Assembly: GCA_030648255.1 (NCBI GenBank)
Contig: JAUSHZ010000007.1
Coordinates: 24,404 to 88,403 of the forward strand
Direction of reading: 5' to 3'
Origin: a bacterium
GTDB lineage: Bacteria; Patescibacteriota; Minisyncoccia; Minisyncoccales; CG1-02-41-26
Length of the DNA stretch: 64,000 nucleotides
Part shown: positions 1,278 to 49,784 of the stretch, piece after piece
Position numbering within the stretch: position 1 is the stretch's first letter
How the letters are laid out: each line of letters starts with the position of its first letter
Translations under genes and position numbers: made by a program
The notes under the pieces: generated by a model
The model's input: only the letters and a program-made list of their open reading frames with translations
What the model was told of the DNA's origin: nothing
The model's database searches: none

Positions 1278-1489
1278 GTTAGAAGCTGTGTGAATTTTTA
1301 AATTTAATGATTTAAAAATTCATTACAGATTCTTACACCCCGTTAAGTGCGAGCGATGAGCGAGCTACTTAACTGGGGTTTGTTTGTATTCTTATCCACC
1401 CCAGTGAAGTAAAATTTGAGTACAAATTCACTTCACGGGGTTAAGCGATTGTATTTGTTCAGCCTCGGCTTCGGCTTCGCAAACAATCG
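1278..1489 (-). repeat. intercistronic structured repeat, copy rpsK|rpsD (leader Y', core A, tail R4)
   Basis: 13-bp hairpin tgaatttttaaat/atttaaaaattca; two CCCC..GGGG hairpins; 9-bp IR agcgattgt/acaatcgct at rpsK TAG. Confidence 0.9.
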
Positions 1490-1945: not shown

Positions 1946-2136
1946 GTTAGTATTCGTTAATGAATGAAGTGGCTTTGCCACGAATGAATTTACGAAGACT
2001 TACACCCTGTGGAGTAGAAATTTGCTCTGCAAATTTCTGTTTTAAATTTTTAGTAAAAAATTTAAAACTACTCCACGGGGTAAATTCGTCGTAAGCTCTG
2101 GCTTCGCCTGCTGGCTTTCCCTCGCTAACGGCTCAT
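1946..2136 (-). repeat. repeat copy rpsM|rpsK (leader W, core B, tail R3)
   Basis: gtggc-ttt-gccac; ccctgtggagtag..ctactccacgggg with two inner hairpins. Confidence 0.9.
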
Positions 2137-2526
2137 TTACTTTGGCCCTGGGGCTGTTTTTCTTCCAGAACTTACAGTTCTCTTAACATTGCCCCTTACA
2201 GTTCTTGAATTCTTTTTTGTTTTTTGCCCTCTAACAGTCAAGCCCTTTATGTGCCTGGTTCCTCGCCAACACTTAATCTCTTTTAATCTTTTAATATGGG
2301 CCACGTGCTCTCTTCTTAAGTCTCCTTCAATCTTATAACTTGCATCAATAACCTCTTTTATCTTCATTGCTTCTTGCTCGGTTAAATCTTTAGCTTTTTT
2401 CTGTGGCTCTATGTTGCATTGCTTTAAAATTCTTAAAGCCAATGGCCTGCCAATGCCAAAAACATAAGTCAAAGAAATGGCTATTTGTTTATTATCTGGA
2501 ATTGTGATGCTTGCTATTCGTGGCAT
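2137..2526 (-). CDS. rpsM: 30S ribosomal protein S13
   Basis: MPRIASITIPDNKQ... S13; start at ATG after ...tctaac of repeat. Confidence 0.92.
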   Translation of the reverse strand: MPRIASITIPDNKQIAISLTYVFGIGRPLALRILKQCNIEPQKKAKDLTEQEAMKIKEVIDASYKIEGDLRREHVAHIKRLKEIKCWRGTRHIKGLTVRGQKTKKNSRTVRGNVKRTVSSGRKTAPGPK

Positions 2527-2751
2527 GTTAGAAGCTGTGTGAATTTTCAAATTTAATGATTTGAAAATTCATTACAGATTCTTACACCCCGTTAAGTGCG
2601 AGCGATTAGCAAGCTACTTAACTGGGGTTTGTTTATATTTCTATCCACACCCCAGTGAAGTAGAATTTAATTTCATTAAATTCACTTCACGGGGTAAATT
2701 CCGCCAACCGCTCAAACTTCGGCTCATCGCCTCGTTTTCGCGGGGCGTCAT
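2527..2751 (-). repeat. repeat copy rpmJ|rpsM (Y, A, R2)
   Basis: near-identical to 2869-3085. Confidence 0.9.
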
Positions 2752-2868
2752 TTATGCGCCTTGGCGCTGTTTGTGTTTTGGAGTTTTGCAAATAACATAA
2801 ACCCTCCCCTTTCTTCTGGCGATTTTACAATCCTTACATAATTTTTTTACTGATGGTTTAACCTTCAT
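2752..2868 (-). CDS. rpmJ: 50S ribosomal protein L36
   Basis: rc gives [38 protein letters not shown] (38 aa, CxxC..C..H); absent from ORF track (<60 aa). Confidence 0.9.
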
Positions 2869-3085
2869 GTTAGAAGCTGTGTGAATTTTTAAATTTAATG
2901 ATTTGAAAATTCATTACAGATTCTTACACCCCGTTAAGTGCGAGCGATTAGCAAGCTACTTAACTGGGGTTTGTTTGTATTTCTATCCACACCCCAGTGA
3001 AGTAGAATTTGAGTACAAATTCACTTCACGGGGTAAATTCCGCTTGCCAATCGCGCTTCGCCTGCTGGCTCGCACTCTTGGAGCG
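2869..3085 (-). repeat. repeat copy infA|rpmJ (Y, A, R1)
   Basis: as above; tail ..ggagcgtcattta abuts infA TGA. Confidence 0.9.
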
Positions 3086-3304
3086 TCATTTAAGTCTATA
3101 AACTATTCTGCCTCTTTTATCATCAATAGAGGCCATTTCAACCAACACCTTATCGCCCAACAAAATTTTTATGCGATTAATTCTAAGCTTCCCGGCCAAA
3201 TGCGCCAAAACCTCGTTTCCATTTTCCAATTGAATTTTAAATAAAAGACTAGGCAAAGCCTCTACAACTTGGCCTCTTTCTCTTATTGTATTAATTTGTT
3301 TCAT
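3086..3304 (-). CDS. infA: translation initiation factor IF-1
   Basis: 72 aa S1-like fold, MKQINTIRERGQVVEALP... Confidence 0.9.
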   Translation of the reverse strand: MKQINTIRERGQVVEALPSLLFKIQLENGNEVLAHLAGKLRINRIKILLGDKVLVEMASIDDKRGRIVYRLK

Positions 3305-4738: not shown

Positions 4739-4866
4739 GTTAGAAATTCTTAATTGAGTGGCGAATTTATGAGCCGTGAAATTTAGAAGTTTTTAGTCCT
4801 CCGTAAATTCAAACTTCGCCTACTGACTCGTTTTCATTAACGGATTACTTATTCTACCACAAAAAT
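4739..4866 (-). repeat. degenerate repeat copy alaS|hypothetical (leader X + tail R3; central hairpin missing)
   Basis: gttagaaattcttaattgagtggcgaatttatgagccgtgaaatttagaa..gtcctccgtaa..attaacggattacttat. Confidence 0.8.
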
Positions 4867-6615
4867 TTACTGCTGCAAAATCGCTTTAATTCGCCGAACG
4901 CCAGCTGAACTGGCTTCTTCTTTAATAATTTTAAATACGCCCAAAGTTTTGGTATTTTCAACATGAGGACCAGCGCAAATTTCTTTAGAGAACTCTCCTG
5001 CGGAATAAACTTTCACTTTTTCTGGATACTTGTGGCCAAAAACTCCTGTGGCCCCTTCATCAAATGCTTTTTGAGTTTCCATTTCACGGCAAACAACAGG
5101 CAACTCCTTTTTTATTTGCTCGTTAACTAAGTCCTCCACTTTTTTTATTTCTTCTGGGGTTAATTTTCTTTCAAAAGAAAAATCAAACCTTATTCTTTCA
5201 GAAGTAATATTGCTACCTTTTTGCTGAACATCCCCTCCCAAAACTTGCCTTAAAGCAGCCAGCATTAAATGAGTGGCTGTGTGGTATTTTGTGGTTTGTT
5301 CAGAATCATCAGCTAAGCCGGATTTAAACTGCCCAGCACTGGCTGTTCTAGACAACTCTTGATGCTTTTTTAATTCCTCTTGAAAACCTTTTTCGTCAAT
5401 TTCCTTGTCTTTCTCCTTGGCAATCTCTCTTGTTATTTCTAAAGGAAATCCGTAAGTTTGATAAAGATTAAAAACCTCTTCCCCAGAAATAATTGGCATA
5501 TTTATTTTTTCAAATTCTTTTAATCCCCTGTCTAAACAAGTTAAAAATCTTTCTTCTTCTTTTTGTAGTTCATTTAAAATAAACTCCTGATTTTCTTTCA
5601 GTTCTGGGTAAACATTTTCATACATAGCAATAATAACTTTAGCAATCTCGCCCGTAAAAGCGCTCTCAATACCCAACAGCTTGCCGTATCTTATTGCCCG
5701 CCTTATTAATCTCCGCAACACATATCCTCTTTCTGTGTTTGACGGAACAAGCCCATCGGCTAATATAAAAACGCTGGCTTTTATATGGTCTGCAATAATG
5801 CGAAAAGATTTTGTATTTTCCTCATATTGCTTTCCCGAAATTTCTGAAATTCTATTTATTATCGGAGTAAACAGCTCTGTTTCATAAACATTACTTTTTC
5901 CTTGCAAAACCATTGTAGTTCTCTCCAGGCCCATGCCAGTGTCCACATTTTTCTGCGATAATTCTTCAAACTTTCCGTCTGCAGTTTTGTTATACTGCAT
6001 AAAAACATTGTTCCAAATCTCCACCCATTTTTTATCGCTTGGGTCAAATTTTTCAGGAACTTCCCCCTCTCCAACCCAATAAAACATTTCTGTGTCTGGG
6101 CCGCAGGGCCCTGTACTTCCTGCTGGGCCCCACCAATTATCCTCACGGCCCAAATAAGCAATCCGCTCTGGCTTAACCCCCAAACCTTGCCAAAGATTAA
6201 AGGCCCCCTCGTCTTTTGGTATATTATTTTCTGTTTCACCTTCAAAAACCGTAAAAGCTAACTTTTCCAAAGGAATATTTAATTCTTTAGTTAAAAATTC
6301 AAAGCTCCATTCAATGGCCTCTTTTTTAAAATAATCCCCCAAACTCCAATTACCAAGCATTTCAAAAAATGTTCCATGGGTGTTGTCCCCCACATCATCA
6401 ATATCACCCGTTCTAATACATTTTTGGCTATTGCAAAGCCGTTTACCTAGGGGATGGTTTTCCCCAAGCAAATAAGGCACCAATGGGTGCATACCTGCTG
6501 TGGTAAATAAAACTGTTGGGTCGTTTTCTGGAATTAAAGGGGCAGATGGTATTCTTTTGTGTCCCTTGTTCTCAAAAAACTTTAAATATTTTTCTCGTAT
6601 TTCTTTAGCTGTCAT
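4867..6615 (-). CDS. alaS: alanine--tRNA ligase, short form (catalytic plus editing-like region, no C-terminal domain)
   Basis: MTAKEIREKYLKFFENKGHKRIPSAPLIPENDPTVLFTTAGMHPL...; HTATHLM motif. Confidence 0.85.
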   Translation of the reverse strand: MTAKEIREKYLKFFENKGHKRIPSAPLIPENDPTVLFTTAGMHPLVPYLLGENHPLGKRLCNSQKCIRTGDIDDVGDNTHGTFFEMLGNWSLGDYFKKEAIEWSFEFLTKELNIPLEKLAFTVFEGETENNIPKDEGAFNLWQGLGVKPERIAYLGREDNWWGPAGSTGPCGPDTEMFYWVGEGEVPEKFDPSDKKWVEIWNNVFMQYNKTADGKFEELSQKNVDTGMGLERTTMVLQGKSNVYETELFTPIINRISEISGKQYEENTKSFRIIADHIKASVFILADGLVPSNTERGYVLRRLIRRAIRYGKLLGIESAFTGEIAKVIIAMYENVYPELKENQEFILNELQKEEERFLTCLDRGLKEFEKINMPIISGEEVFNLYQTYGFPLEITREIAKEKDKEIDEKGFQEELKKHQELSRTASAGQFKSGLADDSEQTTKYHTATHLMLAALRQVLGGDVQQKGSNITSERIRFDFSFERKLTPEEIKKVEDLVNEQIKKELPVVCREMETQKAFDEGATGVFGHKYPEKVKVYSAGEFSKEICAGPHVENTKTLGVFKIIKEEASSAGVRRIKAILQQ

Positions 6616-7381: not shown

Positions 7382-8368
7382 TTAAATCTTTATCTTTCTT
7401 AAATATTCAGCGGCTTTTTCTGGAGGCATTGTTATTATTTCAATGCCACTTCCCAGCTCAAAGCCAGCCCACACAGAAATGCGGGGCATAATAGTGAAAT
7501 GCCAATGGAAAAAAGAGTACTCTTTGTCATCGCACGGGCTTGTGTGTAAATAAAAATTATAATCTGGAAACTCCAAACCATAACCAATCTTTTTTAAAAC
7601 CTCGCCAAAAATTTGGGCTAAATCGCTTTTTTCTTCTTTGGTTATTTTTTCAAAATAAGGCAAGTGGTTTTTTGGAGATATAACAACTTCAAAATTCACT
7701 TTTGAAGCAAAAGGACAAATGGCTAAAAAATTGCTGTTTTCAAAAACAATTCTTGTTTGAACTGATTTTTCCGCCCTATTTGTAGCGCAAAAAAGGCACT
7801 GGCTTTTTTCTTTAAAAAACTCGCGAGAGGAATTTAAAGAGATAGACAAGTCTTTATCAAAAAATGGAATAGCAATAATTTGAGAATGCGGGTGAATTAA
7901 AGAAGCCCCGGCCATCTTGCCATGATTGTGGAAAATAGAAACATAGTTAACAATTTTTTCTTTTGATAGTTCAGTGTATCTTTGCTGGTAAATGCCAAGC
8001 AATTCTTCCCAATCTATTTGAGAAAAATCAGTTAATTGCTTTGAGTGGTCATTAAAAACCACAACTTCATGAAAGCCATTTGAAGGCAATCTTTGGAACA
8101 AAGCGTTGTCAGTTTTTAGTAAATTATTTTTCTGTGGAAAAAATGCGGGAAACTTATTGGGTATTACTACAAAATTTTTATCCCTGAATTTTTCCTGCGC
8201 AAAATAATCACAAAAAGCGCAAGGCATGTTGTCTATCGCCTCGTCTGTTTTTTTCTTTTTAAAATCCTCTGGTCTCTTACCCCTCCCCTCTGCCACCACC
8301 ACCCAATCCTTGTTAATAATGTCGTATCTCAACTCGGATTTTGATTTTACTACTTTTTTGAAAAACAT
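7382..8368 (-). CDS. galactose-1-phosphate uridylyltransferase-like HIT-family protein
   Basis: CAFCDY.. zinc site, HNHGKMAGASLIHPHSQ His-triad. Confidence 0.7.
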   Translation of the reverse strand: MFFKKVVKSKSELRYDIINKDWVVVAEGRGKRPEDFKKKKTDEAIDNMPCAFCDYFAQEKFRDKNFVVIPNKFPAFFPQKNNLLKTDNALFQRLPSNGFHEVVVFNDHSKQLTDFSQIDWEELLGIYQQRYTELSKEKIVNYVSIFHNHGKMAGASLIHPHSQIIAIPFFDKDLSISLNSSREFFKEKSQCLFCATNRAEKSVQTRIVFENSNFLAICPFASKVNFEVVISPKNHLPYFEKITKEEKSDLAQIFGEVLKKIGYGLEFPDYNFYLHTSPCDDKEYSFFHWHFTIMPRISVWAGFELGSGIEIITMPPEKAAEYLRKIKI

Positions 8369-10937: not shown

Positions 10938-12221
10938 CTACAAGTTTTCGTAGTCCCTCATTTCCATTTGGGCTTTTACTTGCCTCCAAATATCCAAAAC
11001 CACAGAAACCACAATCAATATGGCAGTTCCTCCAATTAAAAATTGAAAAGCCACCACCCCTGTTATCCCCTGAATAATTGAAGGCATTACCGCAATTAAG
11101 CTTAAAGATAAAGCGCCAATAAAAAGTGTGCGGTATAAAATCTTTTGCAAAAACTTGGCAGTTGATTCCCCCGGCCTAATGCCTGGCACAAAGCCACCCA
11201 TTTTTTGCAAGTTAGTGGCAATTGATTTTGGGTCAAAGGTAACGGCTGTGTAGAAAAAAGTAAACAGAAAAACCAAAACAAAAAATAGAGATCCGTTCAC
11301 CCAAACATTTGATAAAAATAATGAAACTGCCTTGGCGGTATTGGCAATAAAAGCGTTTCCTCCAACAGTTAAAAAATTAGCAATCATTGTAGGGAAAAGT
11401 AAAATGCTTAAAGCAAAAATAATAGGAATCACGCCAGCCGGGTTTAAATTAATTGGCAAATAAGTGGACACACCTCCATACATTTTATTGCCCCGCACTC
11501 TCTTGGCATAGTTAACTGGAATATTTCTTTTCGCTTCAGTTATTAAGACAACTCCAGCAATAATTACCAAAGCAATGATAAAAAATGCAATATATGGAAG
11601 CGCTTTTGAAGAGTCCCAACTTAAAGCAATTTGTCTGATTTGCGAAGGCGTATCAGCCACAATGCCAGCAAATATCAAAATTGAAACACCATTACCAACA
11701 CCCTTTTCAGTAATAAGTTCGCCAAGCCACATTAAAAATAACGCCCCCCCAGTAATTGTGATAATAGAGGTAATCATTTGCCACGCTGGCAAAACAGCAA
11801 TGGCTCCCTGTTTCTGAAATAGCATTAACATTGCGTAGGCCTGTAATACTGCTAAAGGCACTGTTAAAATTCTGCCATATTTATTAAACCTGGCTCTGCC
11901 TGCTTCTCCTTCTTCTTTATACATTTTTTCCAAAGCTGGAAAAATCATTGTTAAAAGCTGAATAATAATGGTTGAAGTGATATACGGGCCCAAGCCAAGC
12001 ATAACAATTGATAAATTAGAAAAAGCCCCCCCGACGAAAACATTTAAAAGCCCCAAAAGCTCGTTTTGGCTAAAAAATCTTTTTAAATTTTCTAAGTCAA
12101 TCCCTGGAATGGGAATGTTAGCGGCCAATCGTGAAACAGCCAACAAAGCCAAAACAAATAGAATTTTATTTCTTAATTGTTTGTCTTTAAATATTAATAA
12201 TAGTTTTTGAAACCACTCCAT
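10938..12221 (-). CDS. secY: preprotein translocase subunit SecY
   Basis: 427 aa, 10 TM, operon position. Confidence 0.93.
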   Translation of the reverse strand: MEWFQKLLLIFKDKQLRNKILFVLALLAVSRLAANIPIPGIDLENLKRFFSQNELLGLLNVFVGGAFSNLSIVMLGLGPYITSTIIIQLLTMIFPALEKMYKEEGEAGRARFNKYGRILTVPLAVLQAYAMLMLFQKQGAIAVLPAWQMITSIITITGGALFLMWLGELITEKGVGNGVSILIFAGIVADTPSQIRQIALSWDSSKALPYIAFFIIALVIIAGVVLITEAKRNIPVNYAKRVRGNKMYGGVSTYLPINLNPAGVIPIIFALSILLFPTMIANFLTVGGNAFIANTAKAVSLFLSNVWVNGSLFFVLVFLFTFFYTAVTFDPKSIATNLQKMGGFVPGIRPGESTAKFLQKILYRTLFIGALSLSLIAVMPSIIQGITGVVAFQFLIGGTAILIVVSVVLDIWRQVKAQMEMRDYENL

Positions 12222-12409
12222 GTTAGTAATTCTTAATTGAACGGCGAATTTATGAGCTGTGAAATTTAGAATTTCTTACACCCCGTGGAGTAGAAATTTG
12301 CTCTGCAAATTTCTATTTTAAATTTTTTACTAAAAATTTAAAATTACTCCACAGGGTAAATTCCGCTTGCCAATCGCGCTTCGATTACTCAGCACTCTTG
12401 GAGCGTCAT
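12222..12409 (-). repeat. repeat copy secY|rplO (X, B, R1)
   Basis: direct sequence match to family. Confidence 0.9.
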
Positions 12410-12841
12410 TTACTTTACTGTTCCTCCTGCTTTTTCTATTTTAACTTGAGCAGCTTTTGAAACCAAGCAATCCTCAATAGTAAGTGATTTAGTAAGTTCG
12501 CCATTTCCTAAAATTTTTACCAATGGAACTTTGCCTATAATTTTTCTAATTAATTTTTTATCAACTAAAACTTCCGGGGTAATTTTGTCTCCTTTTTCAA
12601 AATTCTTTTCTAAAACATTAAGATTTATAGAGGCTGTTTCTTCTCCTCTTAATTCCTGCCTGTATCCTCTTATTTTTGGATATCTTTTAATAATCTCTCT
12701 CATAAAGGGTTGCATTTTTCTCCCAGCCCTTGATTTTTGGCCTTTGCAACCCTTCCCACAGTAAGTTCCCTTCTTGCCTCCTCTGCCAATTCTTTTTCTA
12801 TCTTTTGTCTTATTATTTGGTTGTATTTCGTGAATTTGCAT
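12410..12841 (-). CDS. rplO: 50S ribosomal protein L15
   Basis: 143 aa, Gly/Arg-rich N-term. Confidence 0.9.
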   Translation of the reverse strand: MQIHEIQPNNKTKDRKRIGRGGKKGTYCGKGCKGQKSRAGRKMQPFMREIIKRYPKIRGYRQELRGEETASINLNVLEKNFEKGDKITPEVLVDKKLIRKIIGKVPLVKILGNGELTKSLTIEDCLVSKAAQVKIEKAGGTVK

Positions 12842-13040
12842 GTTAGTAATTCTTAATTGAACTGCGAACGATTAGTGAGCTGTGAAATTTAGAAGTACTT
12901 ACACCCTGTGGAGTAGAAATTTGCTCTGCAAATTTCTGTTTTAAATTTTTAGTAAAAAATTTAAAACTACTCCACGGGGTAAATTCCGCCTTCCACTCAA
13001 ACTTCGGCTAATCGCCTCGTTTTCGTGGGGCGTCATTTAA
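12842..13040 (-). repeat. repeat copy rplO|rpsE (X, B, R2); tail 13008-13040 is translated as rpsE C-terminus
   Basis: ..cggctaatcgcctcgttttcgtggggcgtcattta in frame with S5. Confidence 0.88.
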
Positions 13041-13526: not shown

Positions 13527-13720
13527 GTTAGTAATTCTTAATTGAACGGCGAACGATTAGTGAGCTGTGAAGTTTAGAAGTACTTACACCCTGTGGAGTA
13601 GAAATTTGCTCTGCAAATTTCTGTTTTAAATTTTTTACTAAAAATTTAAAACTACTCCACGGGGTAAATTCCGCTTGCCAATCGTGCCTCACCTGCTGGC
13701 TCGCACTCTTGGAGCGTCAT
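13527..13720 (-). repeat. repeat copy rpsE|rplR (X, B, R1)
   Basis: sequence match. Confidence 0.9.
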
Positions 13721-14065
13721 TTAAAATTGTAGCCCACCTTCTCTCGCTCCTTCAGCCAACGCTTTTATTCTACCATGATATTTAAAGCCTCCTCTATCAA
13801 AAACAACTTTTTTAATCTTTTTTTCTATTGCTAATTTAGCAATTTCCTTACCAACATTAAAAGCCTTTTCTAATTTTTTCAGTTTTTTCTCTTTTGAATC
13901 GTTTGCTGAAATAATAGTTTTGCCTTTTGTGTCGTCAATTATTTGAGCATAGATATGCTGGTTTGATTTAAATACGCAAAGCCGAGGCGCGGTTGGTGTG
14001 CCAATGACTTTTGCCCTGATTCGGCTGTGTCTTCTTGTTCTTTTTTGTTGTTTTGTCTGTTGCAT
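13721..14065 (-). CDS. rplR: 50S ribosomal protein L18
   Basis: 114 aa. Confidence 0.9.
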
Positions 14066-14258
14066 GTTAGTAGTCGTTAATGAATGAGTGGCGATTAGCC
14101 ACGAGTGAATTTACGAATTCTTACACCCTGTGGAGTAGAAATTTGCTCTGCAAATTTCTGTTTCAAATTTTTAGCAAAAAATTTGAAACTACACCACGGG
14201 GTAAGTCCTCCGTAAGCTCTGGCTTCGGCTAATCGCCTTGCCATCGCTAACGGATTAC
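14066..14258 (-). repeat. repeat copy rplR|rplF (W, B, R3)
   Basis: sequence match; gtggc-gatta-gccac. Confidence 0.9.
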
Positions 14259-14819
14259 TTATTTTCCAGCTTTCTTGCCCTCTTTCTTGCGGACAATTTC
14301 ACCAAAATATCTAACGCCCTTGCCTTTGTATGGCTCTGGCTTTCTTAAAGCTCTTATTTTTGCTGCAAACTGGCCAACCTGTTGCTTGTCAAAACCAAAA
14401 ATATTTATAAATTGTTTTTCTATTTTTATAGACAAACCCCCTGGAATCTCCATAAAAATAGGGTGAGAAAAACCCAAGTCCAATCTTATTTTCGATTCTC
14501 CCTCCATAGCAGCCTTGTATCCAACTCCCCTAAGCTCTAATTTCTTTTCAAATCCAACTGAGACGCCATGAACATGGTTCAATAATAAAGCAGTGGTTAA
14601 CCCCCAGAGAGCAGGAATTTCTTTGCTCTCTTTTTCCTGTCTGCCGACAGGCAGGGCTGGCTTTACAACTAAAATATTACCTTGTTGTTCCACAACAATA
14701 CCAACAGGAATTTCCTGTTTTATCTCTCCCTTAGGCCCTTTAAATAAAACATTATCTTTTTCAAGAATAACTGTTACGCCTTGGGGTATTTCTATTGGTT
14801 TTTTTCCTATTCTTGACAT
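14259..14819 (-). CDS. rplF: 50S ribosomal protein L6
   Basis: MSRIGKKPIEIPQGV...; track prefix MKTHTISNM is artefact. Confidence 0.92.
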   Translation of the reverse strand: MSRIGKKPIEIPQGVTVILEKDNVLFKGPKGEIKQEIPVGIVVEQQGNILVVKPALPVGRQEKESKEIPALWGLTTALLLNHVHGVSVGFEKKLELRGVGYKAAMEGESKIRLDLGFSHPIFMEIPGGLSIKIEKQFINIFGFDKQQVGQFAAKIRALRKPEPYKGKGVRYFGEIVRKKEGKKAGK

Positions 14820-15021
14820 GTTAGAAATTGTGTGAGTTTTCAAGCTATAATCTTTTTTATGGCTTGAAAACTCATTACAAGTTCTTACACCCTGTGGAGT
14901 AGAAATTTGCTCCGCAAATTTCTGTTTTAAATTTTTTACTAAAAATTTAAAACTACTCCACGGGGTAAGGTATCCGTAAGCTCGGGCTTCGCCTGCTGGC
15001 TCGCCCTCGCTAACGGCTACC
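14820..15021 (-). repeat. repeat copy rplF|rpsH (Z, B, R3)
   Basis: 13-bp hairpin tgagttttcaagc/gcttgaaaactca. Confidence 0.9.
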
Positions 15022-15411
15022 TTACCACACTTCCACCATTAATTCACCTCCGACTTTATCTTTTCTGGCTTGCTTATCTGTTAATAAACCATTGGTGGTT
15101 GAAACAATAGATAAGCCATAGCCACTTCTTACCTTTGAAATCTCGTCTGCTTTTTTATAAATTCTTTGCCCTGGCTTTGAAATCCTTTTAAACCCAGAGA
15201 CGGCTGGCATCTTTTCATTATATTTTAACTGTATTTTTATAATTTGAAACGGCTTTTTCCCTTTTTTCTTGCAATCCAAAATAAGCCCCTCTGCTTTTAA
15301 AATTTCAGCAATTGAGTATCTTAGTTTTGAAAAAGGAACATCGGTTGTTTTATGGAAAACAACTTGAGCGTTCCTTATTCTATTAAACATGTCTGTTATT
15401 GGATCGGTCAT
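15022..15411 (-). CDS. rpsH: 30S ribosomal protein S8
   Basis: MTDPITDMFNRIRNA... Confidence 0.92.
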   Translation of the reverse strand: MTDPITDMFNRIRNAQVVFHKTTDVPFSKLRYSIAEILKAEGLILDCKKKGKKPFQIIKIQLKYNEKMPAVSGFKRISKPGQRIYKKADEISKVRSGYGLSIVSTTNGLLTDKQARKDKVGGELMVEVW

Positions 15412-15612
15412 ATTAGAAGTTGTGTGAGTTTTCAAGCTATAATTTTTTTTATGGCTTGAAAACTCATTACAAATTCTTATACCCCGTGGAGTAGAAATTT
15501 GCTCTGCAAATTTCTGTTTTAAATTTTTTACTAAAAATTTAAAACTACTCCACAGGGTAAGTCCTCCGTAAGCTCTGGCTCGGCTGTTGCCTCGCCATAG
15601 CTAACGGATTAC
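15412..15612 (-). repeat. repeat copy rpsH|rpsN (Z, B, R3)
   Basis: sequence match. Confidence 0.9.
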
Positions 15613-15798
15613 TTACCAAGACGACTTCTTAATCCCGGGTATTTCTCCTTTACTTGCCATTTCCCTAAAACAAATTCTGCACAAACCAAAGTCCCTTATA
15701 AATCCCCTGTACCTTCCGCACTTAAAACATCGCCTCACTATTCTTGAAGAAAACTTTGGTTTTCGGTTTGATTGATTAATTAATGATTTTTTTGCCAT
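15613..15798 (-). CDS. rpsN: 30S ribosomal protein S14 type Z (zinc)
   Basis: 61 aa, CxxC..CxxC. Confidence 0.9.
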
Positions 15799-16020
15799 GT
15801 TAGTGATTCTTAATTGAACGGCGAGCGATTAGCGAGCTGTGAAATTTAGAATGACTTACACCCCGTTAAGTGCGAGCGATTAGCGAGCTACTTAACTGGG
15901 GTTTCGTTGTATTCTTACCCCACCCCAGTGAAGTAGAATTTGAGTACAAATTCACTTCACGGGGTAAGGCTCTGCTACCGCTCAACCTTCGCCTTCGGCT
16001 CGGCTTCACGGGCAGAAGCC
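15799..16020 (-). repeat. repeat copy rpsN|rplE (X, A, R2-like); tail 15975-16020 translated as rplE C-terminus
   Basis: taccgctcaaccttcgccttcggctcggcttcacgg ~ R2 consensus. Confidence 0.85.
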
Positions 16021-16577
16021 TTAAATGGAAACCCCAGCAATCTTAATAATGCAGCGCCTTCTTCCTTTGTTTTGGCTGTTGTTGAAATTGTTACTTCTAA
16101 TCCAAAAATGCCTTTCTCTTTTTCAACTTTCAATTCAGGAAATGGAACATACTCTTTAAATCCAACTGTAATATCTCCTTGGCTTGTCATAGATTTCTCT
16201 TCAACGCCCCTAAAGTCTCTAGACCTTGGCAAAACAACCCAAATCAACTTCTCTAAAAAATCATACATTCTTTTCTTTCTTAAGGTGCAGCTGGCTCCAA
16301 CCGCCATACCTTCTCTTAGCTTGAAAGCAGCAATTGATTTTTTTGCTTTATTTAGAGATGGTTTTTGCCCGGTAATAGCGGCTATTGATTGAGCAATATA
16401 TTCTTCCGCTTTTTCTCTCTCACTGGCGCTTTTTCCAATAACCATTTTGCCAAAACCGCAATTAACAACAATCTTCTTTATTTTTGGCACAGCCATAACA
16501 GAACTATACCCGAATTTCTTCGTCATTTCAGGAATAACTATTTTATTGTATTGCTCTTGTAATTTCATATTTTTCAT
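15975..16577 (-). CDS. rplE: 50S ribosomal protein L5 (C-terminal ~14 aa encoded by repeat-derived sequence)
   Basis: start taken at MKNMKLQEQYNKIVIPEM after 22-bp hairpin; tail ASAREAEPKAKVER. Confidence 0.85.
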   Translation of the reverse strand: MKNMKLQEQYNKIVIPEMTKKFGYSSVMAVPKIKKIVVNCGFGKMVIGKSASEREKAEEYIAQSIAAITGQKPSLNKAKKSIAAFKLREGMAVGASCTLRKKRMYDFLEKLIWVVLPRSRDFRGVEEKSMTSQGDITVGFKEYVPFPELKVEKEKGIFGLEVTISTTAKTKEEGAALLRLLGFPFKASAREAEPKAKVER

Positions 16578-16961: not shown

Positions 16962-17177
16962 GTTAGAAATTGTGTGAGTTTTCAAGCTATAATCTTTTTT
17001 ATGGCTTGAAAACTCATTACAAGTTCTTACACCCTGTTAAGTGCGAGCGATGAGCGAGCTACTTAACTGGGGTTTGTTTATATTATTCTCATACCCCAGT
17101 GAAGTAGAATTTGATTACAAATTCACTTCACGGGGTTAAGCGATTGTAATGCTCGGCTATCGCCTCGCAGACAATCG
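16962..17177 (-). repeat. repeat copy rplN|rplX (Z, A, R4)
   Basis: sequence match; IR agcgattgt/acaatcgct at rplN TAG. Confidence 0.9.
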
Positions 17178-18375: not shown

Positions 18376-18566
18376 GTTAGAAGCTGTGTGAATTTTCAAA
18401 TTTAATGATTTGAAAATTCATTACAGATTCTTACACCCCGTGGAGTAGAAATTTGCTCTGCAAATTTCTGTTTTAAATTTTTAGTAAAAAATTTAAAACT
18501 ACTCCACAGGGTAAATTCCGCTTGCCAATCACGCTCGCCTGCTGGCTCGCGCTCTTGGAGCGTCAT
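18376..18566 (-). repeat. repeat copy rpsC|rplP (Y, B, R1)
   Basis: sequence match. Confidence 0.9.
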
Positions 18567-19226
18567 TTAATTAAAGCGTTCTCCCTTATACATCCAAACC
18601 TTAACGCCAATAACCCCATAAGTGCAGTGTGCCTCGCATGAGCCATATTCAACTATGGCTCTTATTGTTTGAAGCGGAAGTCGCCCATCTTTTAACCATT
18701 CTCTTCTGGAAATTTCAACTCCATTTAACCTACCTGATACCTCAACCTTCACGCCTTTTATTTCTTTTTGCTCAGCTGTTTTGCTTATTGCCATTTTCAA
18801 AACTCTTCTAAACGGCACTTGCTTTTCGATTTGGCCAGCCATCCATTGAGCTGTTAAGCTGGCTGAAAGCCATGGGTTTCTTATTTCAATAATTTCTATT
18901 TTAATGCTGTTTTTATCTGTTTTTATCTTCCCCTTTACTTTTGATATTGCTTTTTCAATTCCCATTTTCAAATCCTCAACTCCTTTGCCCCCCCTGCCGA
19001 TAATCAAAGCGGGTCTGGAAGTTTTAATAATAATTTTTAAGGCAGCGGATGTTCTCTCTATCTCTACTTCCTGAATAATACCCGCGGGTAGCTTCTTAGT
19101 GATAAACTGCCTAATTATAAAATCCTCCTCTAAGTAAACAGGAAAATTGTTCTTATAAAAGCCTCTTGAAAGCCAGTCTTTCATTTCTCTTATCTTAAAA
19201 GATTTTGGGTTGACTTTATGGCTCAT
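18567..19226 (-). CDS. rpsC: 30S ribosomal protein S3
   Basis: KH domain, 219 aa. Confidence 0.93.
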   Translation of the reverse strand: MSHKVNPKSFKIREMKDWLSRGFYKNNFPVYLEEDFIIRQFITKKLPAGIIQEVEIERTSAALKIIIKTSRPALIIGRGGKGVEDLKMGIEKAISKVKGKIKTDKNSIKIEIIEIRNPWLSASLTAQWMAGQIEKQVPFRRVLKMAISKTAEQKEIKGVKVEVSGRLNGVEISRREWLKDGRLPLQTIRAIVEYGSCEAHCTYGVIGVKVWMYKGERFN

Positions 19227-19576: not shown

Positions 19577-19776
19577 GTTAGAAATTGTGTGAGTTTTCAA
19601 GCTATATTTCCTTATGGCTTGAAAACTCATTACAAGTTCTTACACCCCGTGGAGTAGAAATTTGCTCCGCAAATTTCTGTTTTAAATTTTTAGTAAAAAA
19701 TTTAAAACTACTCCACAGGGTAAATTCCGCTTGCCAATCGCGCTTCGCCTGCTGGCTCGCGCTCTTGGAGCGTCAT
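19577..19776 (-). repeat. repeat copy rpsS|rplV (Z, B, R1)
   Basis: sequence match. Confidence 0.9.
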
Positions 19777-20103
19777 TTATTTCTTTACTGGTACTGGTGC
19801 TTTAGGTTGGGTTTGAGTTTGCACTTTTGATTCTTGCTCTCTTTGCATTTTTCCGCCATGCCTGCCAAACTTCGTGGTTGGGGAAAATTCTCCTAATTTA
19901 TGGCCAACCATATCTTCTGAAACATAAACGGGAATATGCTCTTTTCCATTATGGACTCCAAAAGTAAAGCCAACCATTTCTGGTGTAACAGAACACTCGC
20001 GAGACCATGTCTTAATAACTTTTTTCTCGCCAGCTTTCTGGTTGATGACTTTTTTTATTAATCTTTCGTCCACAAAAGGACCCTTTTTTAGTGATCGTGG
20101 CAT
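19777..20103 (-). CDS. rpsS: 30S ribosomal protein S19
   Basis: [15 protein letters not shown]. Confidence 0.93.
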
Positions 20104-22641: not shown

Positions 22642-22941
22642 GTTAGAAGCTGTGTGAATTTTTAAATTTAATGATTTAAAAATTCATTACAGATTCTTAC
22701 ACCCTGTGAAGTAAAATTTGAGTACAAATTTTAATTTTAAATTTTTTACTAAAAATTTAAAATTACTTCACGGGGTTAATAATCCGTAAGCTCAAGCTTC
22801 GCCTGCTGGCTCGCTCTCGCTAACGAATTATTAAAAACACGAGGCATTAACTCCCCGCATTTTTGTTAAAAACTCAAGGGTTAAATTCTTCCCACTTTCA
22901 AGGGTTAAACTAATTAAGTTTTACCTTGAACTCTATATTAA
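22642..22941 (-). repeat. repeat copy rpsJ|rplC (Y', A/B hybrid core, R3) plus ~110-nt unique tail with tttaacccttga direct repeat
   Basis: ccctgtgaagtaaaatttgagtacaaatt..ttactaaaaatttaaaattacttcacgggg. Confidence 0.88.
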
Positions 22942-24805: not shown

Positions 24806-24810
24806 AATCT

Positions 24811-24889
24811 TAGAAACCAGAATTCCGAAACCAGAATTCCGAACTTTAATAACTAGAAATTTTTCGGATTTCGGATTTCGTGCTTCGGA
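24811..24889 (-). promoter_or_regulatory. inverted arrays of TTCCGAA (x2) and TTCGGA (x3) flanking an AT-rich core upstream of YefM-like ORF
   Basis: aaaccagaattccg x2 at 24814-24841; ttcgga at 24863, 24870, 24884. Confidence 0.5.
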
Positions 24890-24898
24890 TTTTTATTG

Positions 24899-27001: not shown

Positions 27002-27088
27002 AAGTTAATCGGTTTAGTCATTCTGAGCCAACGGGCGAAGAATCTCGGCCGAGACCCTTCGCTAATCACTTAGGGTGACAACAATATT

Positions 27089-27550: not shown

Positions 27551-27814
27551 GTTAGTAATCGTTAATGAATGAGTGGCGATTAGCCACGAGTGAATTTACG
27601 AGGACTTACACCCTGTGAAGTAAGATTTGAGGTCTCTTCCAAAAAGTGTATTCTCTTAAACTTTTAACTATTTTTCTCTCGCATCAATTGTTAATAATCG
27701 TACCCTCAAATCTTAATTTTAAATTTTTTACTAAAAATTTAAAATTACTTCACGGGGTAAATTCCGCCAACCGCTCAAACTTCGGCTCATCGCCTCGTTT
27801 TTGCTGGGCGTCAT
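27551..27814 (-). repeat. repeat copy rpsL|rpsG (W, B-type hairpin carrying ~80-nt insertion, R2)
   Basis: ccctgtgaagtaagatttgagg..[insert]..cctcaaatc..attacttcacgggg. Confidence 0.88.
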
Positions 27815-28231
27815 TTAACTTTTAACTCTTTTTGCTCCGTATTTAGATCTTCCATTTTTTCTGCCAGCCACCCCTGTGGTATCTAAATGTCCTCTAACAA
27901 TATGATATCTCACGCCGGGTAAATCTTTAACCCTTCCCCCTCTCACCAAAACCATTGAGTGCTCTTGTAGGTTGTGGCCTTCCCCGCCAATATAAGCAGA
28001 AACTTCTTTGCCATTTGATAGCTTAACCCTGGCTACTTTTCGTAAAGCCGAGTTTGGTTTTTTTGGAGTAACTGTGAAAACCTTAGTGCAAATTCCTCTC
28101 TTAAATGGAGACGCGTAGTCCTGTGGCCTGTTTTTTAAAACATTAAAACCATAAGTCAAAGCTCTCATCTTGATTGTTTTTTTCACTGGCTTTCTTGGCT
28201 TTTTAATTAATTGATGAATTGTTGGACACAT
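27815..28231 (-). CDS. rpsL: 30S ribosomal protein S12
   Basis: [11 protein letters not shown], 138 aa. Confidence 0.95.
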
Positions 28232-28366: not shown

Positions 28367-29317
28367 TTACTTACACTGCTGGGGTTTCACAGAGGTGCAG
28401 GTCAATGTTCCGTCAAGTGCTGTGCACCAAGTAATTCCTGCTTTGTCTGTATCTCCAATTCCCAAACAGCCAGTCAACGCTCCACTTCCTATCATAACTG
28501 TTGTCGAAGCAGAAGACGACACCTCCAAATTATACGCCGGCGTTGTCGTCCCAATCCCGATATTACCCTTCAATATTGTTTTCGTAATACTAGTATTTCC
28601 TAAAGTTACAGAATTGCTGCCATTGCCTATAGCACTCGCTCCTATTACTATTTCATTGGTATTCCCGTCTGCTCCAGCCATTGCGTTATAACCCTCATAA
28701 ACAGAGTTACTGGAAGTTGTATTGGCGGTAACACCATCGGCAATATAAACACCAGCCTTCGTGCCATTGGCGGTGTTTTGATAACCAGTATTATAGTAGA
28801 GAGCCTGCATACCGTTAGCGGTATTTTGATAACCAGTAGTGTTTGAGAAAAGAGCCTGCATACCGTTAGCGGTATTGTAATCGCCAGCAGTATTAGAATA
28901 AAGGGCATACACGCCATTAGCTGTATTTGTATATCCTGTAGTGTTAGAGTAGAGAGATCTATAACCAACAGCAGTATTATAACCCGCTTCATTTGTACTG
29001 GCTGTTGAACTTGCCATCCCCGCTTGATAGCCAACAAAAGTATTGTATAAGGATACATCATAATGACCTGCCTGGTAGCCAATATTAGTTTTAAAGCCAA
29101 TATTATTAAAATCAATTAGATCAGTAACCGCTATACCAAGAGAGGTTAGATATGTAGTAGTAGTTGTAGCTAATGTGCTAGTACTAAAAACATCTAGAGC
29201 TCCCCCAATAGAAACATTATTACCAATTGTGGTAACAGCTTGGGCGACTATAACTACGCAAAAAACCGTTGTTATGACGCTCACTACTACAGTAAAAATT
29301 TGCTTTTTATTATTCAT
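28367..29317 (-). CDS. membrane-anchored surface protein with GYxNTANG repeats (tail-fibre / YadA-head-like) and Cys-rich C-terminus
   Basis: N-terminal TM; ~8 tandem ~14-aa repeats NTANGxxALYSNTxGY; GNIGIGTTTPAYNLEV resembles tail-fibre neck motif. Confidence 0.55.
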   Translation of the reverse strand: MNNKKQIFTVVVSVITTVFCVVIVAQAVTTIGNNVSIGGALDVFSTSTLATTTTTYLTSLGIAVTDLIDFNNIGFKTNIGYQAGHYDVSLYNTFVGYQAGMASSTASTNEAGYNTAVGYRSLYSNTTGYTNTANGVYALYSNTAGDYNTANGMQALFSNTTGYQNTANGMQALYYNTGYQNTANGTKAGVYIADGVTANTTSSNSVYEGYNAMAGADGNTNEIVIGASAIGNGSNSVTLGNTSITKTILKGNIGIGTTTPAYNLEVSSSASTTVMIGSGALTGCLGIGDTDKAGITWCTALDGTLTCTSVKPQQCK

Positions 29318-33462: not shown

Positions 33463-34305
33463 TTATGAAAAATCTGTTAAAAACTTGATTTGGTTTGCTT
33501 GTTGCACATTAAAGTTTATTTTATTTTTGATAAATTCCAAACGATATTCTGGAGAAATTTCCCCGCCATTTGCCAACCTATCTAAAATCATTTGATAATA
33601 TTTAGGATGTATTTCACAAGAAACAAAATCTCTCTTAAGTTCTTTACATTTTAGTAGCTCTGAACCACTCCCACCAAACAACACAAAAATATTGTCGCCT
33701 TCTTTGGTGCTTGATTTTATCAACATTTCAACTAAGCTCAAAGGTATTTGGCAAGAATGAAAAGTTTTATCTTTAGAAACATTTTTAACTAAATCAAAAT
33801 AAAACCAAGAGTATGGCATCCTTCCAGCACTTCCATTTTTAATTCTTCCCTGTATTCTTTTATCGGTTGGATTTTGATAGGGTAAAGCAACTTGATCTTT
33901 ATAAAAATTATTATTTTTTGTTTTTGTAGCGTGTAAAATAACTCTATGGGCAGTGGTAAATTTTTTATCGCTATGGCCAATATTTGAGTTATAAACCCAA
34001 ACATAGTCATTTACTAAAAAGGCATTGTCGTCTAGAAATTTTACTCTTAAATAGGCATTTTGTTTTGGGTAATTCATCATAAATAAATTCCCTGTCGGTT
34101 TTAAAACCCTCATACATTCTTTCGTAAGCTCAATATACCAATCAATATACTCATTCCATTTAGCGGTAAATTTTTTACCAGCATAATTTATGCCCACATT
34201 ATAATCTGGGTCACCATATACCATATCAACCGAATTATCTGGCATTTTCTTTAGAGTAACTAGAATATCGTCATTAAAAATTTTGTTTATAAAATTTTCT
34301 ATCAT
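33463..34305 (-). CDS. DNA methyltransferase, beta-class N6A/N4C
   Basis: DPDY (motif IV-like) near N-term, FVLFGGSGSE (motif I) near C-term. Confidence 0.75.
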   Translation of the reverse strand: MIENFINKIFNDDILVTLKKMPDNSVDMVYGDPDYNVGINYAGKKFTAKWNEYIDWYIELTKECMRVLKPTGNLFMMNYPKQNAYLRVKFLDDNAFLVNDYVWVYNSNIGHSDKKFTTAHRVILHATKTKNNNFYKDQVALPYQNPTDKRIQGRIKNGSAGRMPYSWFYFDLVKNVSKDKTFHSCQIPLSLVEMLIKSSTKEGDNIFVLFGGSGSELLKCKELKRDFVSCEIHPKYYQMILDRLANGGEISPEYRLEFIKNKINFNVQQANQIKFLTDFS

Positions 34306-48956: not shown

Positions 48957-49115
48957 ATTTTTTTATTATATTATAATTATATTAGAGCTGGCAATAATAG
49001 CTTTTAGGAGACCACGAGGGTACCCTCCGCGCATGTGGAGGTCTTAATACTTGTGGTAAATCCTAGGAGACGCCACTCTATAAAAATCATCTCTTTTGAG
49101 GTGTTTTTTATTATT

Positions 49116-49784
49116 TTATTTTTTGTTAAATTCTTTCCAATAATCTTTAAATAATTCTTGTGAAGCAATAATATTACTGTGTAAAATTTCATAAAACTTT
49201 TTTCCAAATGGTCGGTTAGTGTAATAGCGATATAATGCCCCGCAAATCCAGTCGGCAATTTGTATATTAGAATCAGTTGCAGAATCAACAGTATTTACAT
49301 AAACGCTCGCTTTTTTAGATAGTTGCAAGATAATATGCAAACGCAAGTTTTCTTTAAATTCTTTTTGTGAAACTTTTTTCAAACTTCTATGGTCTAAATT
49401 AAGAATAATTTGTGGCTCTGCGTTAGGAAAAATAATATCAAGAGTTTTAGCTATTATCTCAGTATAAAGACGGCCCGACTCAACAGCGCTTTTTCTTCTA
49501 AATTCCAAAGGAATATTTTCTGATTTTAGAAAAGAATAAAAAATACGGATATTTTGTTGAGCTAAATATAATAGTGTTTCAGCGCGCAATTTATCAGTTA
49601 AACGAGCATCGGTGAACTTAACTTCCCTGCGGAATTTAAGTTTTTTGTTAGCAAATTTTGCGTCTTGCCACTTGCGAAACGCTTTGGCAGTGGTTCGTTG
49701 ATTGCCAATAATAAACCCGCCGACTATGAAAAGTTTTTCTTTATCACCTTGAAAATTACCAGATTCATCAATAAAAATATACAT
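49116..49784 (-). CDS. DUF3800 family protein
   Basis: MYIFIDESGNF hallmark. Confidence 0.65.
   Translation of the reverse strand: MYIFIDESGNFQGDKEKLFIVGGFIIGNQRTTAKAFRKWQDAKFANKKLKFRREVKFTDARLTDKLRAETLLYLAQQNIRIFYSFLKSENIPLEFRRKSAVESGRLYTEIIAKTLDIIFPNAEPQIILNLDHRSLKKVSQKEFKENLRLHIILQLSKKASVYVNTVDSATDSNIQIADWICGALYRYYTNRPFGKKFYEILHSNIIASQELFKDYWKEFNKK

Follow-up and report, generated by a model that had tools for sequence, protein, structure and literature searches.

Between the genes for ribosomal protein L15 and SecY in a Paceibacteria bacterium of the candidate phyla radiation (CPR), a strong RNA hairpin (positions 12280–12357, minus strand, of the 64,000-nucleotide stretch of contig JAUSHZ010000007.1 analyzed here and called the window) is the center of a longer repeat composed of nested palindromes. 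This composite is probably a mobile element, comparable to miniature inverted-repeat transposable elements (MITEs), bacterial interspersed mosaic elements (BIMEs) or Correia elements, that has been filtered for compatibility with the mRNA in which it resides, and its family appears to spread and to be lost quickly in Paceibacteria-type CPR bacteria. The unit consists, in constant order, of an L hairpin, a core, an R hairpin and an (A/U)CUAAC tail; it measures approximately 150–270 nt, typically 190 nt, its 5′ limit being the stop codon of the preceding gene (or a −10 box) and its 3′ limit the A of the following AUG. When entire junctions are folded, three abutting, self-contained hairpin domains are obtained with no linker bases between them. 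In the focal copy these parts are:

12222–12412, minus strand: focal L15-SecY junction element, type L1 + core B + type R1, −66.5 kcal/mol over 194 nt
12358–12412, minus strand: focal L domain, covariance-model match of 44.1 bits, E = 2e-7
12280–12357, minus strand: focal core B, 13-bp outer stem with U·G at position 5 and two sub-hairpins
12222–12279, minus strand: focal R1 and CUAAC tail, a weak hairpin, its 3′ arm reaching up to the A of the SecY AUG

The focal element thus begins with the L15 stop codon UAA (12410–12412) and ends with CUAAC immediately before the SecY AUG (12219–12221). Its L domain is an irregular hairpin holding the stop codon inside the base helix UAAAU/AUUUA, with GA/GA and GA/GAA loops between the helices. 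On the minus strand the core reads ACCCUGUGGAGUA-[AUUUUAAAUUUUU AGUA AAAAAUUUAAAAU]-AG-[AAAUUUGC AGA GCAAAUUU]-CUACUCCACGGGGU. The first-pass annotation had described it as a three-way-junction hairpin on the mRNA strand, and RNAfold indeed returns this fold at −38.1 kcal/mol, as compared to −16.0 ± 3.0 for shuffled sequences (z = −7.4; none of 200 shuffles is equal). The letters it quoted are those of the sister copy at 12903–12980, which shows few differences, including the first loop (AGUA vs. UACU) and C/U and A/G exchanges at stem position 5.

Self-comparison of the window by BLAST reveals 17 repeat blocks of 110–250 nt, all on the minus strand and within 1275–27818; the other 36 kb contain none. 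Allowing up to three mismatches, the right-arm 16-mer is found 19 times in the window (both arms counted) against 0.1 expected. The surrounding genes, likewise on the minus strand, make up the usual S12-S7-EF-G-EF-Tu-S10...L15-SecY...IF1-L36-S13-S11-S4 cluster. An inventory of cores, obtained by regular-expression harvest with coordinates, gives 11 B-type cores, in agreement with the proposed repetition at no fewer than 11 cistron junctions, and five A-type cores, which had been described as carrying two separate hairpins; all of them have the orientation of the mRNA and lie between genes of the S12-to-S4 cluster:

2004–2081, 12280–12357, 12903–12980, 13588–13665, 14125–14202, 14889–14966, minus strand: B-type cores
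15481–15558, 18435–18512, 19644–19721, 22701–22776 (hybrid), 27610–27758 (enlarged), minus strand: B-type cores, continued
1337–1441, 2586–2695, 2928–3034, 15860–15965, 17031–17136, minus strand: A-type cores

Two further details of the first-pass annotation are confirmed: the second arm of the core at 22701–22776 matches the A-type apex, as expected of a hybrid, and that of the core at 27610–27758 is larger by about 75 nt; across the copies, the outer stems are conserved and the apical parts vary. What did not stand is the choice of the hairpin core as the unit. Altogether, four types of L, at least three types of core (A, B and B with an enlarged arm) and four types of R are combined, the modules being 85–100% alike. 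One copy, upstream of a gene encoding a 459-residue GlxA-like protein, has no core at all:

4739–4850, minus strand: coreless copy, type L2 joined to type R1, L model 60.4 bits, with a −10-like TGGTAGAAT at its 5′ edge

Because this copy joins L to R directly, the core must be regarded as a dispensable insert nested in the composite.

The position of the element relative to genes is remarkably strict. Our census comprises 64 unique copies, 60 of which could be evaluated, and in all 60 an ATG-initiated open reading frame (ORF) on the same strand starts at most 10 nt from the tail, at 0 nt in 53 cases; where a few extra bases precede the ATG, the element still ends with CUAACA. An upstream ORF precedes 51 copies, and its stop codon, usually located 57–59 nt before the core, is the first codon of L; in roughly one fifth of the copies this ORF reads into L. 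At least seven copies have as their 5′ boundary the final T of a TATAAT or TGnTATAAT box and constitute there the entire 5′ leader. The spacer so occupied separates two cistrons or, behind a −10 box, forms the whole leader, and the element is therefore always part of an mRNA. Copies lying in untranscribed DNA, which the first-pass annotation would have taken as a sign of a purely selfish element, were not encountered: all 60 evaluable copies have a same-strand ORF downstream. Beyond the ribosomal cluster, the downstream genes encode RpoC, RRF, NusA, S16, SecG, rubrerythrin, response regulators, pilins and membrane proteins.

The starts so marked belong to a genome nearly devoid of Shine-Dalgarno sequences, which are found at 1–2 of about 52 gene starts in the window; this lack being genome-wide, we rejected it as a trait specific to the element. 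Complementarity of the CUAAC tail to an anti-Shine-Dalgarno sequence was considered as well; the sequences examined contain no 16S rRNA gene. At several gene starts of the window, including those at 8368 and 52160, a TATAAT precedes the ATG by 6–8 nt, suggesting leaderless mRNAs or mRNAs with very short leaders. A small ORF within L (UAA-AUG-ACG...) was discarded as a candidate, its frame and length differing between types L1 and L3 and type L2 containing no AUG. The element also constitutes a trap for annotation: ORF callers extend the genes for L22 (19223–19630, minus strand) and L16 (17968–18399, minus strand) into the R domain by using an AUG or UUG inside R3 or R4, the R4 AUG of the S19-L22 copy being in frame with L22.

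The L domain looks like a structured RNA. Its four sequence types have in common the base helix UAAAU/AUUUA that holds the upstream stop codon. When 43 distinct L sequences are aligned with MAFFT, pairing in the two central helices reaches 93.7%, and these helices contain 62 double-sided changes, as compared to 16.7 ± 4 after shuffling (none of 500 shuffles reaches 62), and pairing falls to 18–38% once the partner columns are slid. Among 60 copies, 40 G·U pairs stand against 6 A·C mismatches, and the internal loops are of the GA/GA (73) or GA/GAA (31) kind. Moreover, the sense strand is predicted to fold better than its complement (−21.8 vs. −16.2 kcal/mol), being the more stable one in 55 of the 60 copies. 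L therefore carries constraints of the type expected for RNA of the sense strand; all matches of the L model in the window are on the minus strand. In three loci (L004, L008 and L015) a small extra hairpin is inserted in the L apex. The apical loops of L (GAUUA) and R (UAAUC) were considered as kissing partners, an idea rejected because they do not co-occur consistently.

The R domain shows the opposite bias. Its 3′ arm ends in all four types with ...(A/U)CUAAC, the last paired base being the A of the next AUG, and its sense strand is systematically weakened (−16.7 vs. −22.1 kcal/mol for the complement; weaker in 58 of 60 copies), with A·A, C·U and UC/UC loops. R pairs gene positions −15 to −1, where the unpaired probability is 0.29 as compared to 0.53 for other genes. 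A comparison of type L2 with the reverse complement of type R2 gives 38–42 matches in about 60 positions (z = 4.3–5.4), which identifies these two types as inverted, diverged relatives.

The core, finally, is strand-symmetric and not biased in favor of the mRNA strand. G·U pairs (38) are as frequent as C·A pairs (37), and of 57 unique cores 36 have an antisense strand that folds better than the sense strand. In 27 aligned cores all stem changes are double-sided and lead from one Watson-Crick pair to another. The entire interior is inverted, with the order of the arms swapped, in 12 of the 57 unique cores, the first loop reading UACU or its complement AGUA. Such a symmetric and flipping core fits a DNA palindrome or a generic duplex rather than a shaped RNA site. 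The only conserved irregularity is the fifth stem pair, which is C·A in 36, U·G in 10, C-G in 7 and U-A in 4 unique cores; in A-type hairpins the corresponding site, 5 bp from the core base, is occupied by a bulge. A strict wobble at this position (C·A or U·G only) holds in the window and is refuted by the C-G and U-A pairs of metagenome copies, the enrichment in mismatches persisting. Outer stem and coaxial arm of core B together form a near-perfect duplex of approximately 26 bp.

Scanning species-representative genomes with a sequence pattern of the family yielded 15 loci, 12 of them on four contigs of the metagenome-assembled genome (MAG) STD1_120 of Candidatus Paceibacterota and three from other CPR MAGs, labelled Saccharibacteria, Gribaldobacteria and "bacterium". 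The STD1_120 loci comprise at least 45 repeat segments, and the ribosomal genes of this genome are about 82% identical to those of the window at the DNA level. The pattern also matches 23 metagenome contigs. No match was obtained among viral contigs, and a phage vector was rejected on this ground. Rfam gave no match at gathering score, an E-value search returning only sub-threshold generic hairpin (miRNA) models, and we found no description of this repeat family in the full-text literature. An exact look-up of the S19 protein, made to find empty and filled alleles at the strain level, recovered a single contig of 1.5 kb, whose end coincides with the repeat; the Logan contig L039 breaks off at the stop codon of S19.

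Related genomes do not carry the element at the same junctions. L15-SecY, S19-L22 and S10-L3 are filled in the window only, and L2-S19, L23-L2, L16-L29 and S17-L14 in STD1_120 only; a further relative, L035, is empty at five junctions filled in both, and it keeps a solo R tail. Two contigs obtained via the L2 protein, L040 (nearest to the window, its ribosomal proteins being 90.0% identical on average) and L041 (nearest to STD1_120, 88.3%), contain no element anywhere from S12 to SecY, their spacers being 1–60 nt long. Since these relatives do without it, the element is not needed for expression of the operon, and many gains or clean losses must have occurred since the split; judged on these genomes, it is not a conserved or essential processing signal. 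Some of the empty sites in L040 and L041 have tail-like ends (TAA-C-ATG, TAA-TAAC-ATG, TAA-GAATTACTAAA-ATG and TAA-ATTAAGAATTACTAAA-ATG), which could be deletion footprints or a native pre-start motif copied by the element. Non-orthologous modules of the window and STD1_120 are 92–95% identical, as compared to about 82% for flanking coding DNA, and orthologous copies are mostly not mutual best matches; such a pattern suggests a common pool that has been spreading recently, or strong homogenization. The more distant L029 (67% identity) has one family member, nearly all its other junctions carrying an unrelated long palindrome from stop to start. Transfer of whole junctions by homologous recombination was also considered, and no clear mosaic similarity was seen at gene ends, the 75-nt windows used being too noisy. 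At its own L15-SecY junction (L014, 4254–4301) STD1_120 has an in-situ hairpin, spacer and SecY start holding five ATGTTTC tandem units that face GAAACTT words.

Taken together, these observations are best accounted for by a mobile repeat on which the transcript acts as a filter. We infer that in highly expressed operons only copies that fold on themselves would survive. A surviving copy would provide a stable stem-loop, located either just behind the stop codon or 5′-terminally in the mRNA, and a weaker one presenting the AUG behind the usual ...ACUAAC pre-start motif of the clade; the filter would likewise favor copies that do not pair with coding sequence and leave an openable start region. 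A filter acting on the transcript would account for copies that all point one way, for a 3′ boundary exact to the base, for the RNA-type constraints on L and for the weakening of R. In the mRNA, L would probably serve as a protective terminal stem-loop, and the long perfect duplex of the core may be the likeliest substrate for a double-strand-specific nuclease.

Several points weigh against this reading. No transposase or recombinase was found by Pfam among 30 proteins of the window. TAA, a putative target-site duplication, is present at both ends of the element, and empty TAA-C-ATG sites exist in L040 and L041, but a constant C follows the right-hand TAA. Only a single orientation is seen, whereas cut-and-paste of double-stranded DNA predicts both. 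The native spacer of 1–60 nt is never kept at filled sites, which simple insertion does not predict. Clear terminal inverted repeats are limited to the L2/R2 pair, the inverted relation not being significant for the tested combinations of types L1 and L3 with R1 and of L2 with R4; and the protective and processing roles in RNA are putative. A more specific proposal, which we consider decidedly improbable, is that the repeat is a mobile cistron-junction cassette inserting itself, to the exact base, in the interval from a stop codon (or the final T of a −10 box) to the following start, replacing the spacer and bringing its own stop codon, protective 5′ or 3′ stem-loop and start-codon context. 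If true, it would explain ribosomal operons tiled with elements in two lineages and clean sister lineages; to our knowledge, a targeting rule defined by translation signals is known for no bacterial mobile element, and a mechanism truly aimed at the stop-start interval would be new.

An alternative that deserves attention, although we regard it as doubtful, is a dedicated intercistronic cassette for processing and stabilization, in which RNase III or another endoribonuclease would cut the core duplex or the perfect 13-bp R apex, leaving an upstream mRNA capped by the L hairpin and a downstream one with a short unstructured leader that activates translation. Phage T7 RNase III sites and RNase III-cleaved Correia elements offer precedents. 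The near-perfect coaxial duplex of core B, the imperfect L and R with their conserved internal loops, and the irregularity kept 5 bp from the core base in both core types (non-Watson-Crick in 46 of 57 B cores and Watson-Crick in 11; a bulge in A) would all suit such a site; opening or cutting R would help initiation, since R sequesters positions −15 to −1, and promoter-proximal copies place the 5′ end at a stem-loop. The likeness to RNase III sites proposed in the first-pass annotation holds for an intercistronic hairpin on the mRNA strand with an irregular duplex of at least 20 bp, but not for its conservation, the same junctions of relatives lacking it: L040 and L041 run the same operon with the short spacers mentioned above. 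One copy is coreless, the core has no sense-strand bias and its interior flips, and no rnc (RNase III) gene was found by Pfam among 30 window proteins. Cleavage of the core or the R apex by RNase III would be a reasonable addition to the mobile-repeat reading, and such processing cannot be essential since sister genomes do without the element.

Conversely, the repeat might be a purely selfish DNA palindrome with no role in RNA, its orientation and position being set by a strand-specific, single-strand insertion mechanism acting through imperfect hairpins (in the style of IS200/IS605, of the tyrosine transposases associated with repetitive extragenic palindromes, RAYTs, or of integron attC sites) and coupled to transcription or replication. 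This is unlikely in our opinion, even though the symmetric core keeps its stem mismatch or bulge, a trait of the hairpins that HUH enzymes recognize, the flipping of palindromic parts indicates DNA-level events, and gain and loss are rapid, with a cross-species identity exceeding that of host genes. The minus strand is, in addition, the G-rich strand across the window, so that co-orientation with replication and with genes is confounded. A replication-coupled rule would, however, leave some copies antisense, near lagging-strand genes, whereas all evaluable copies abut a same-strand start; the excess of G·U pairs and GA loops in L and the opposite stability bias of R are predictions of selection on the transcript, and no Y1/HUH gene was seen in the window. 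Least probable of all, we think, is a translation device, in which self-folding brings the stop codon at the base of L near the AUG at the base of R so that ribosomes re-initiate across approximately 190 nt, or in which the CUAAC tail is an initiation enhancer in a genome without Shine-Dalgarno sequences. The stop codon and the A of the AUG do lie in base helices with no interdomain linkers, Shine-Dalgarno sequences are hardly used (1–2 of about 52 starts), ...ACUAA(C/A)-AUG also closes several spacers of relatives free of the element, and L035 has retained an R tail alone. Promoter-proximal copies, on the other hand, have no upstream cistron, about one copy in five has an upstream ORF that continues into L, mutual pairing of L and R is seen only in the L2/R2 type, and relatives couple the same genes with spacers of 1–5 nt. 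Ribozyme, tRNA-like and intron readings were set aside because there is no conserved unpaired core and no linker nucleotide at the junctions, ARAGORN predicting only two ordinary tRNAs elsewhere.

Several known systems are similar in kind. Among them are the Correia elements of Neisseria (also called NEMIS), short non-coding inverted repeats present in many copies, co-transcribed in operons as long mRNA hairpins and differing in presence from strain to strain, as the present element does between genomes; Correia elements are RNase III substrates, the very mechanism proposed in the first-pass annotation. Their sequence is unrelated and comes from another phylum, and they have 26-bp terminal inverted repeats, a TA duplication, either orientation and varied distances to genes, whereas the element of the present study has three parts, invariably shares the orientation of the gene and stops precisely at the start codon. 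With repetitive extragenic palindromic (REP) sequences, BIMEs and REPINs of enterobacteria and pseudomonads it shares imperfect palindromes with conserved hairpin mismatches, arranged in a few fixed mosaics in transcribed intergenic DNA. REP and BIME elements stabilize upstream mRNA segments; REPs, however, are 20–40 nt long, usually located 3′ of genes, often in inverted pairs and linked to RAYTs, as opposed to approximately 190 nt 5′ of a start in one orientation here. The pneumococcal BOX elements (boxA-boxB(n)-boxC), thought to be mobilized in trans, are likewise modular with a variable middle part, intergenic, co-transcribed and strongly structured as RNA. They show no sequence relation, and their terminal modules pair with each other whereas each module folds alone in the present case; we know of no link of BOX elements to the stop-start interval or to one orientation.

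Phage T7-type RNase III sites are also irregular intercistronic hairpins with internal loops and a duplex of at least 20 bp, but they are unique and positionally conserved in one genome, in contrast to dispersed repeats that are missing from sister genomes and have a core free of strand-specific constraint. Like MITEs, the element is short and non-coding, exists in many near-identical copies and is polymorphic in its presence at orthologous sites; unlike MITEs, it is not found in either orientation, all 60 evaluable copies being co-oriented with the downstream gene. It belongs to no curated Rfam family, and the covariation and preference for G·U over A·C typical of cis-regulatory RNA are seen in L, not in the core, R being biased oppositely.

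The other elements of the window are as follows (L1–L4 and R1–R4 are domain types; hyphenated names are the flanking genes):

1278–1489, minus strand: S11-S4 element, L4 + core A (1337–1441) + R3
1946–2138, minus strand: S13-S11 element, L2 variant + core B (2004–2081) + R2
2527–2754, minus strand: L36-S13 element, L3 + core A (2586–2695) + R3
2869–3092, minus strand: IF1-L36 element, L1 + core A (2928–3034) + R3
12842–13039, minus strand: S5-L15 element (the copy quoted in the first-pass annotation), L3 + core B (12903–12980) + R1
13527–13723, minus strand: L18-S5 element, L1 + core B (13588–13665) + R1
14066–14260, minus strand: L6-L18 element, L2 + core B (14125–14202) + R2, with L2 and R2 inverted relatives
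14820–15023, minus strand: S8-L6 element, L2 + core B (14889–14966) + R4
15412–15614, minus strand: S14-S8 element, L2 + core B (15481–15558) + R4
15799–16022, minus strand: L5-S14 element, L hairpin overlapping the 3′ end of the L5 coding sequence + core A (15860–15965) + R1
16962–17177, minus strand: L14-L24 element, L4 + core A (17031–17136) + R4
18376–18569, minus strand: S3-L16 element, L1 + core B (18435–18512) + R3
19577–19779, minus strand: S19-L22 element, L1 + core B (19644–19721) + R4
22642–22833, minus strand: S10-L3 element, after the S10-L3 leader hairpin, L2 + hybrid core (22701–22776) + R3
27551–27817, minus strand: S12-S7 element, L3 + core B with enlarged second arm (27610–27758) + R2

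In the antisense (plus) direction, B cores present arm 2 followed by the T-rich arm 1, a terminator-like pattern that occurs at 12286–12320, 12909–12943, 13594–13628 and 14895–14929, and also at 15487–15521, 18441–18475 and 19650–19684; a scan for this pattern gave 27 sites where 7.3 were expected; almost all of them are plus-strand sites, and none is predicted on the mRNA strand. Other junctions of the cluster carry structures of different kinds. The S10-L3 leader (22836–22941, minus strand) contains a conserved, attenuator-like hairpin followed by a U-run (GCGGGGAGUUAAUGCCUCGUGUUUUU) that is present in all relatives, the repeat being inserted directly after it in the window. The spacer between EF-G and an 89-residue ORF (24806–24898, minus strand) forms an unrelated junction hairpin whose arms consist of short tandem words (AAUCCGAA / UUCGGAAUUC), and this second kind of hairpin is also found at junctions of L040 and L029, comparable palindromes from stop to start occupying most ribosomal junctions of L029. 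In the S7-EF-G spacer (27002–27088, minus strand) lies a GC-richer repeat, reading ...GUCAUUCUGAGCCAACGGGCGAAGAAUCUCGGCCGAGACCCUUCGCUAAUC... on the plus strand, which is conserved in L041 and resembles a motif in the L23-L2 spacer of L029.

Elsewhere in the window, Rfam identifies a DUF3800-V RNA (48983–49080, plus strand; 41.9 bits vs. a gathering score of 37.4) adjoining a DUF3800 protein gene (49116–49784, minus strand), the expected pairing. Four tandem 51-nt repeats with 71–100% identity (28739–28939) lie in an ORF of 316 residues (28367–29317, minus strand) that has no Pfam match. The alanyl-tRNA synthetase ORF (4867–6615, minus strand) encodes 582 residues including the catalytic and SAD domains and is shorter than the usual bacterial enzyme. 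Between 32001 and 36000 the GC content falls to 0.31–0.32 over genes for a DNA methylase (33463–34305), a DUF6996/DUF6997 protein and LexA, a stretch that may be an acquired island.

In practical terms, the family breaks assemblies (as in L039) and makes ORF callers extend genes into R or L in CPR MAGs. If the L and R hairpins stabilize or process the transcript, they would represent a compact, portable spacer for the insulation of genes in synthetic operons. For the organisms themselves, CPR (Patescibacteria) genomes rank with the most streamlined on record, and yet in the present case this repeat accounts for about 1% of the DNA in the most highly expressed essential operon. It constitutes a natural experiment, in which a repeat is carried in the mRNA of up to 17 translation genes at no visible cost, and the comparison of sister genomes with and without it shows what stop-start structure is tolerated by an operon that functions nearly without Shine-Dalgarno sequences.

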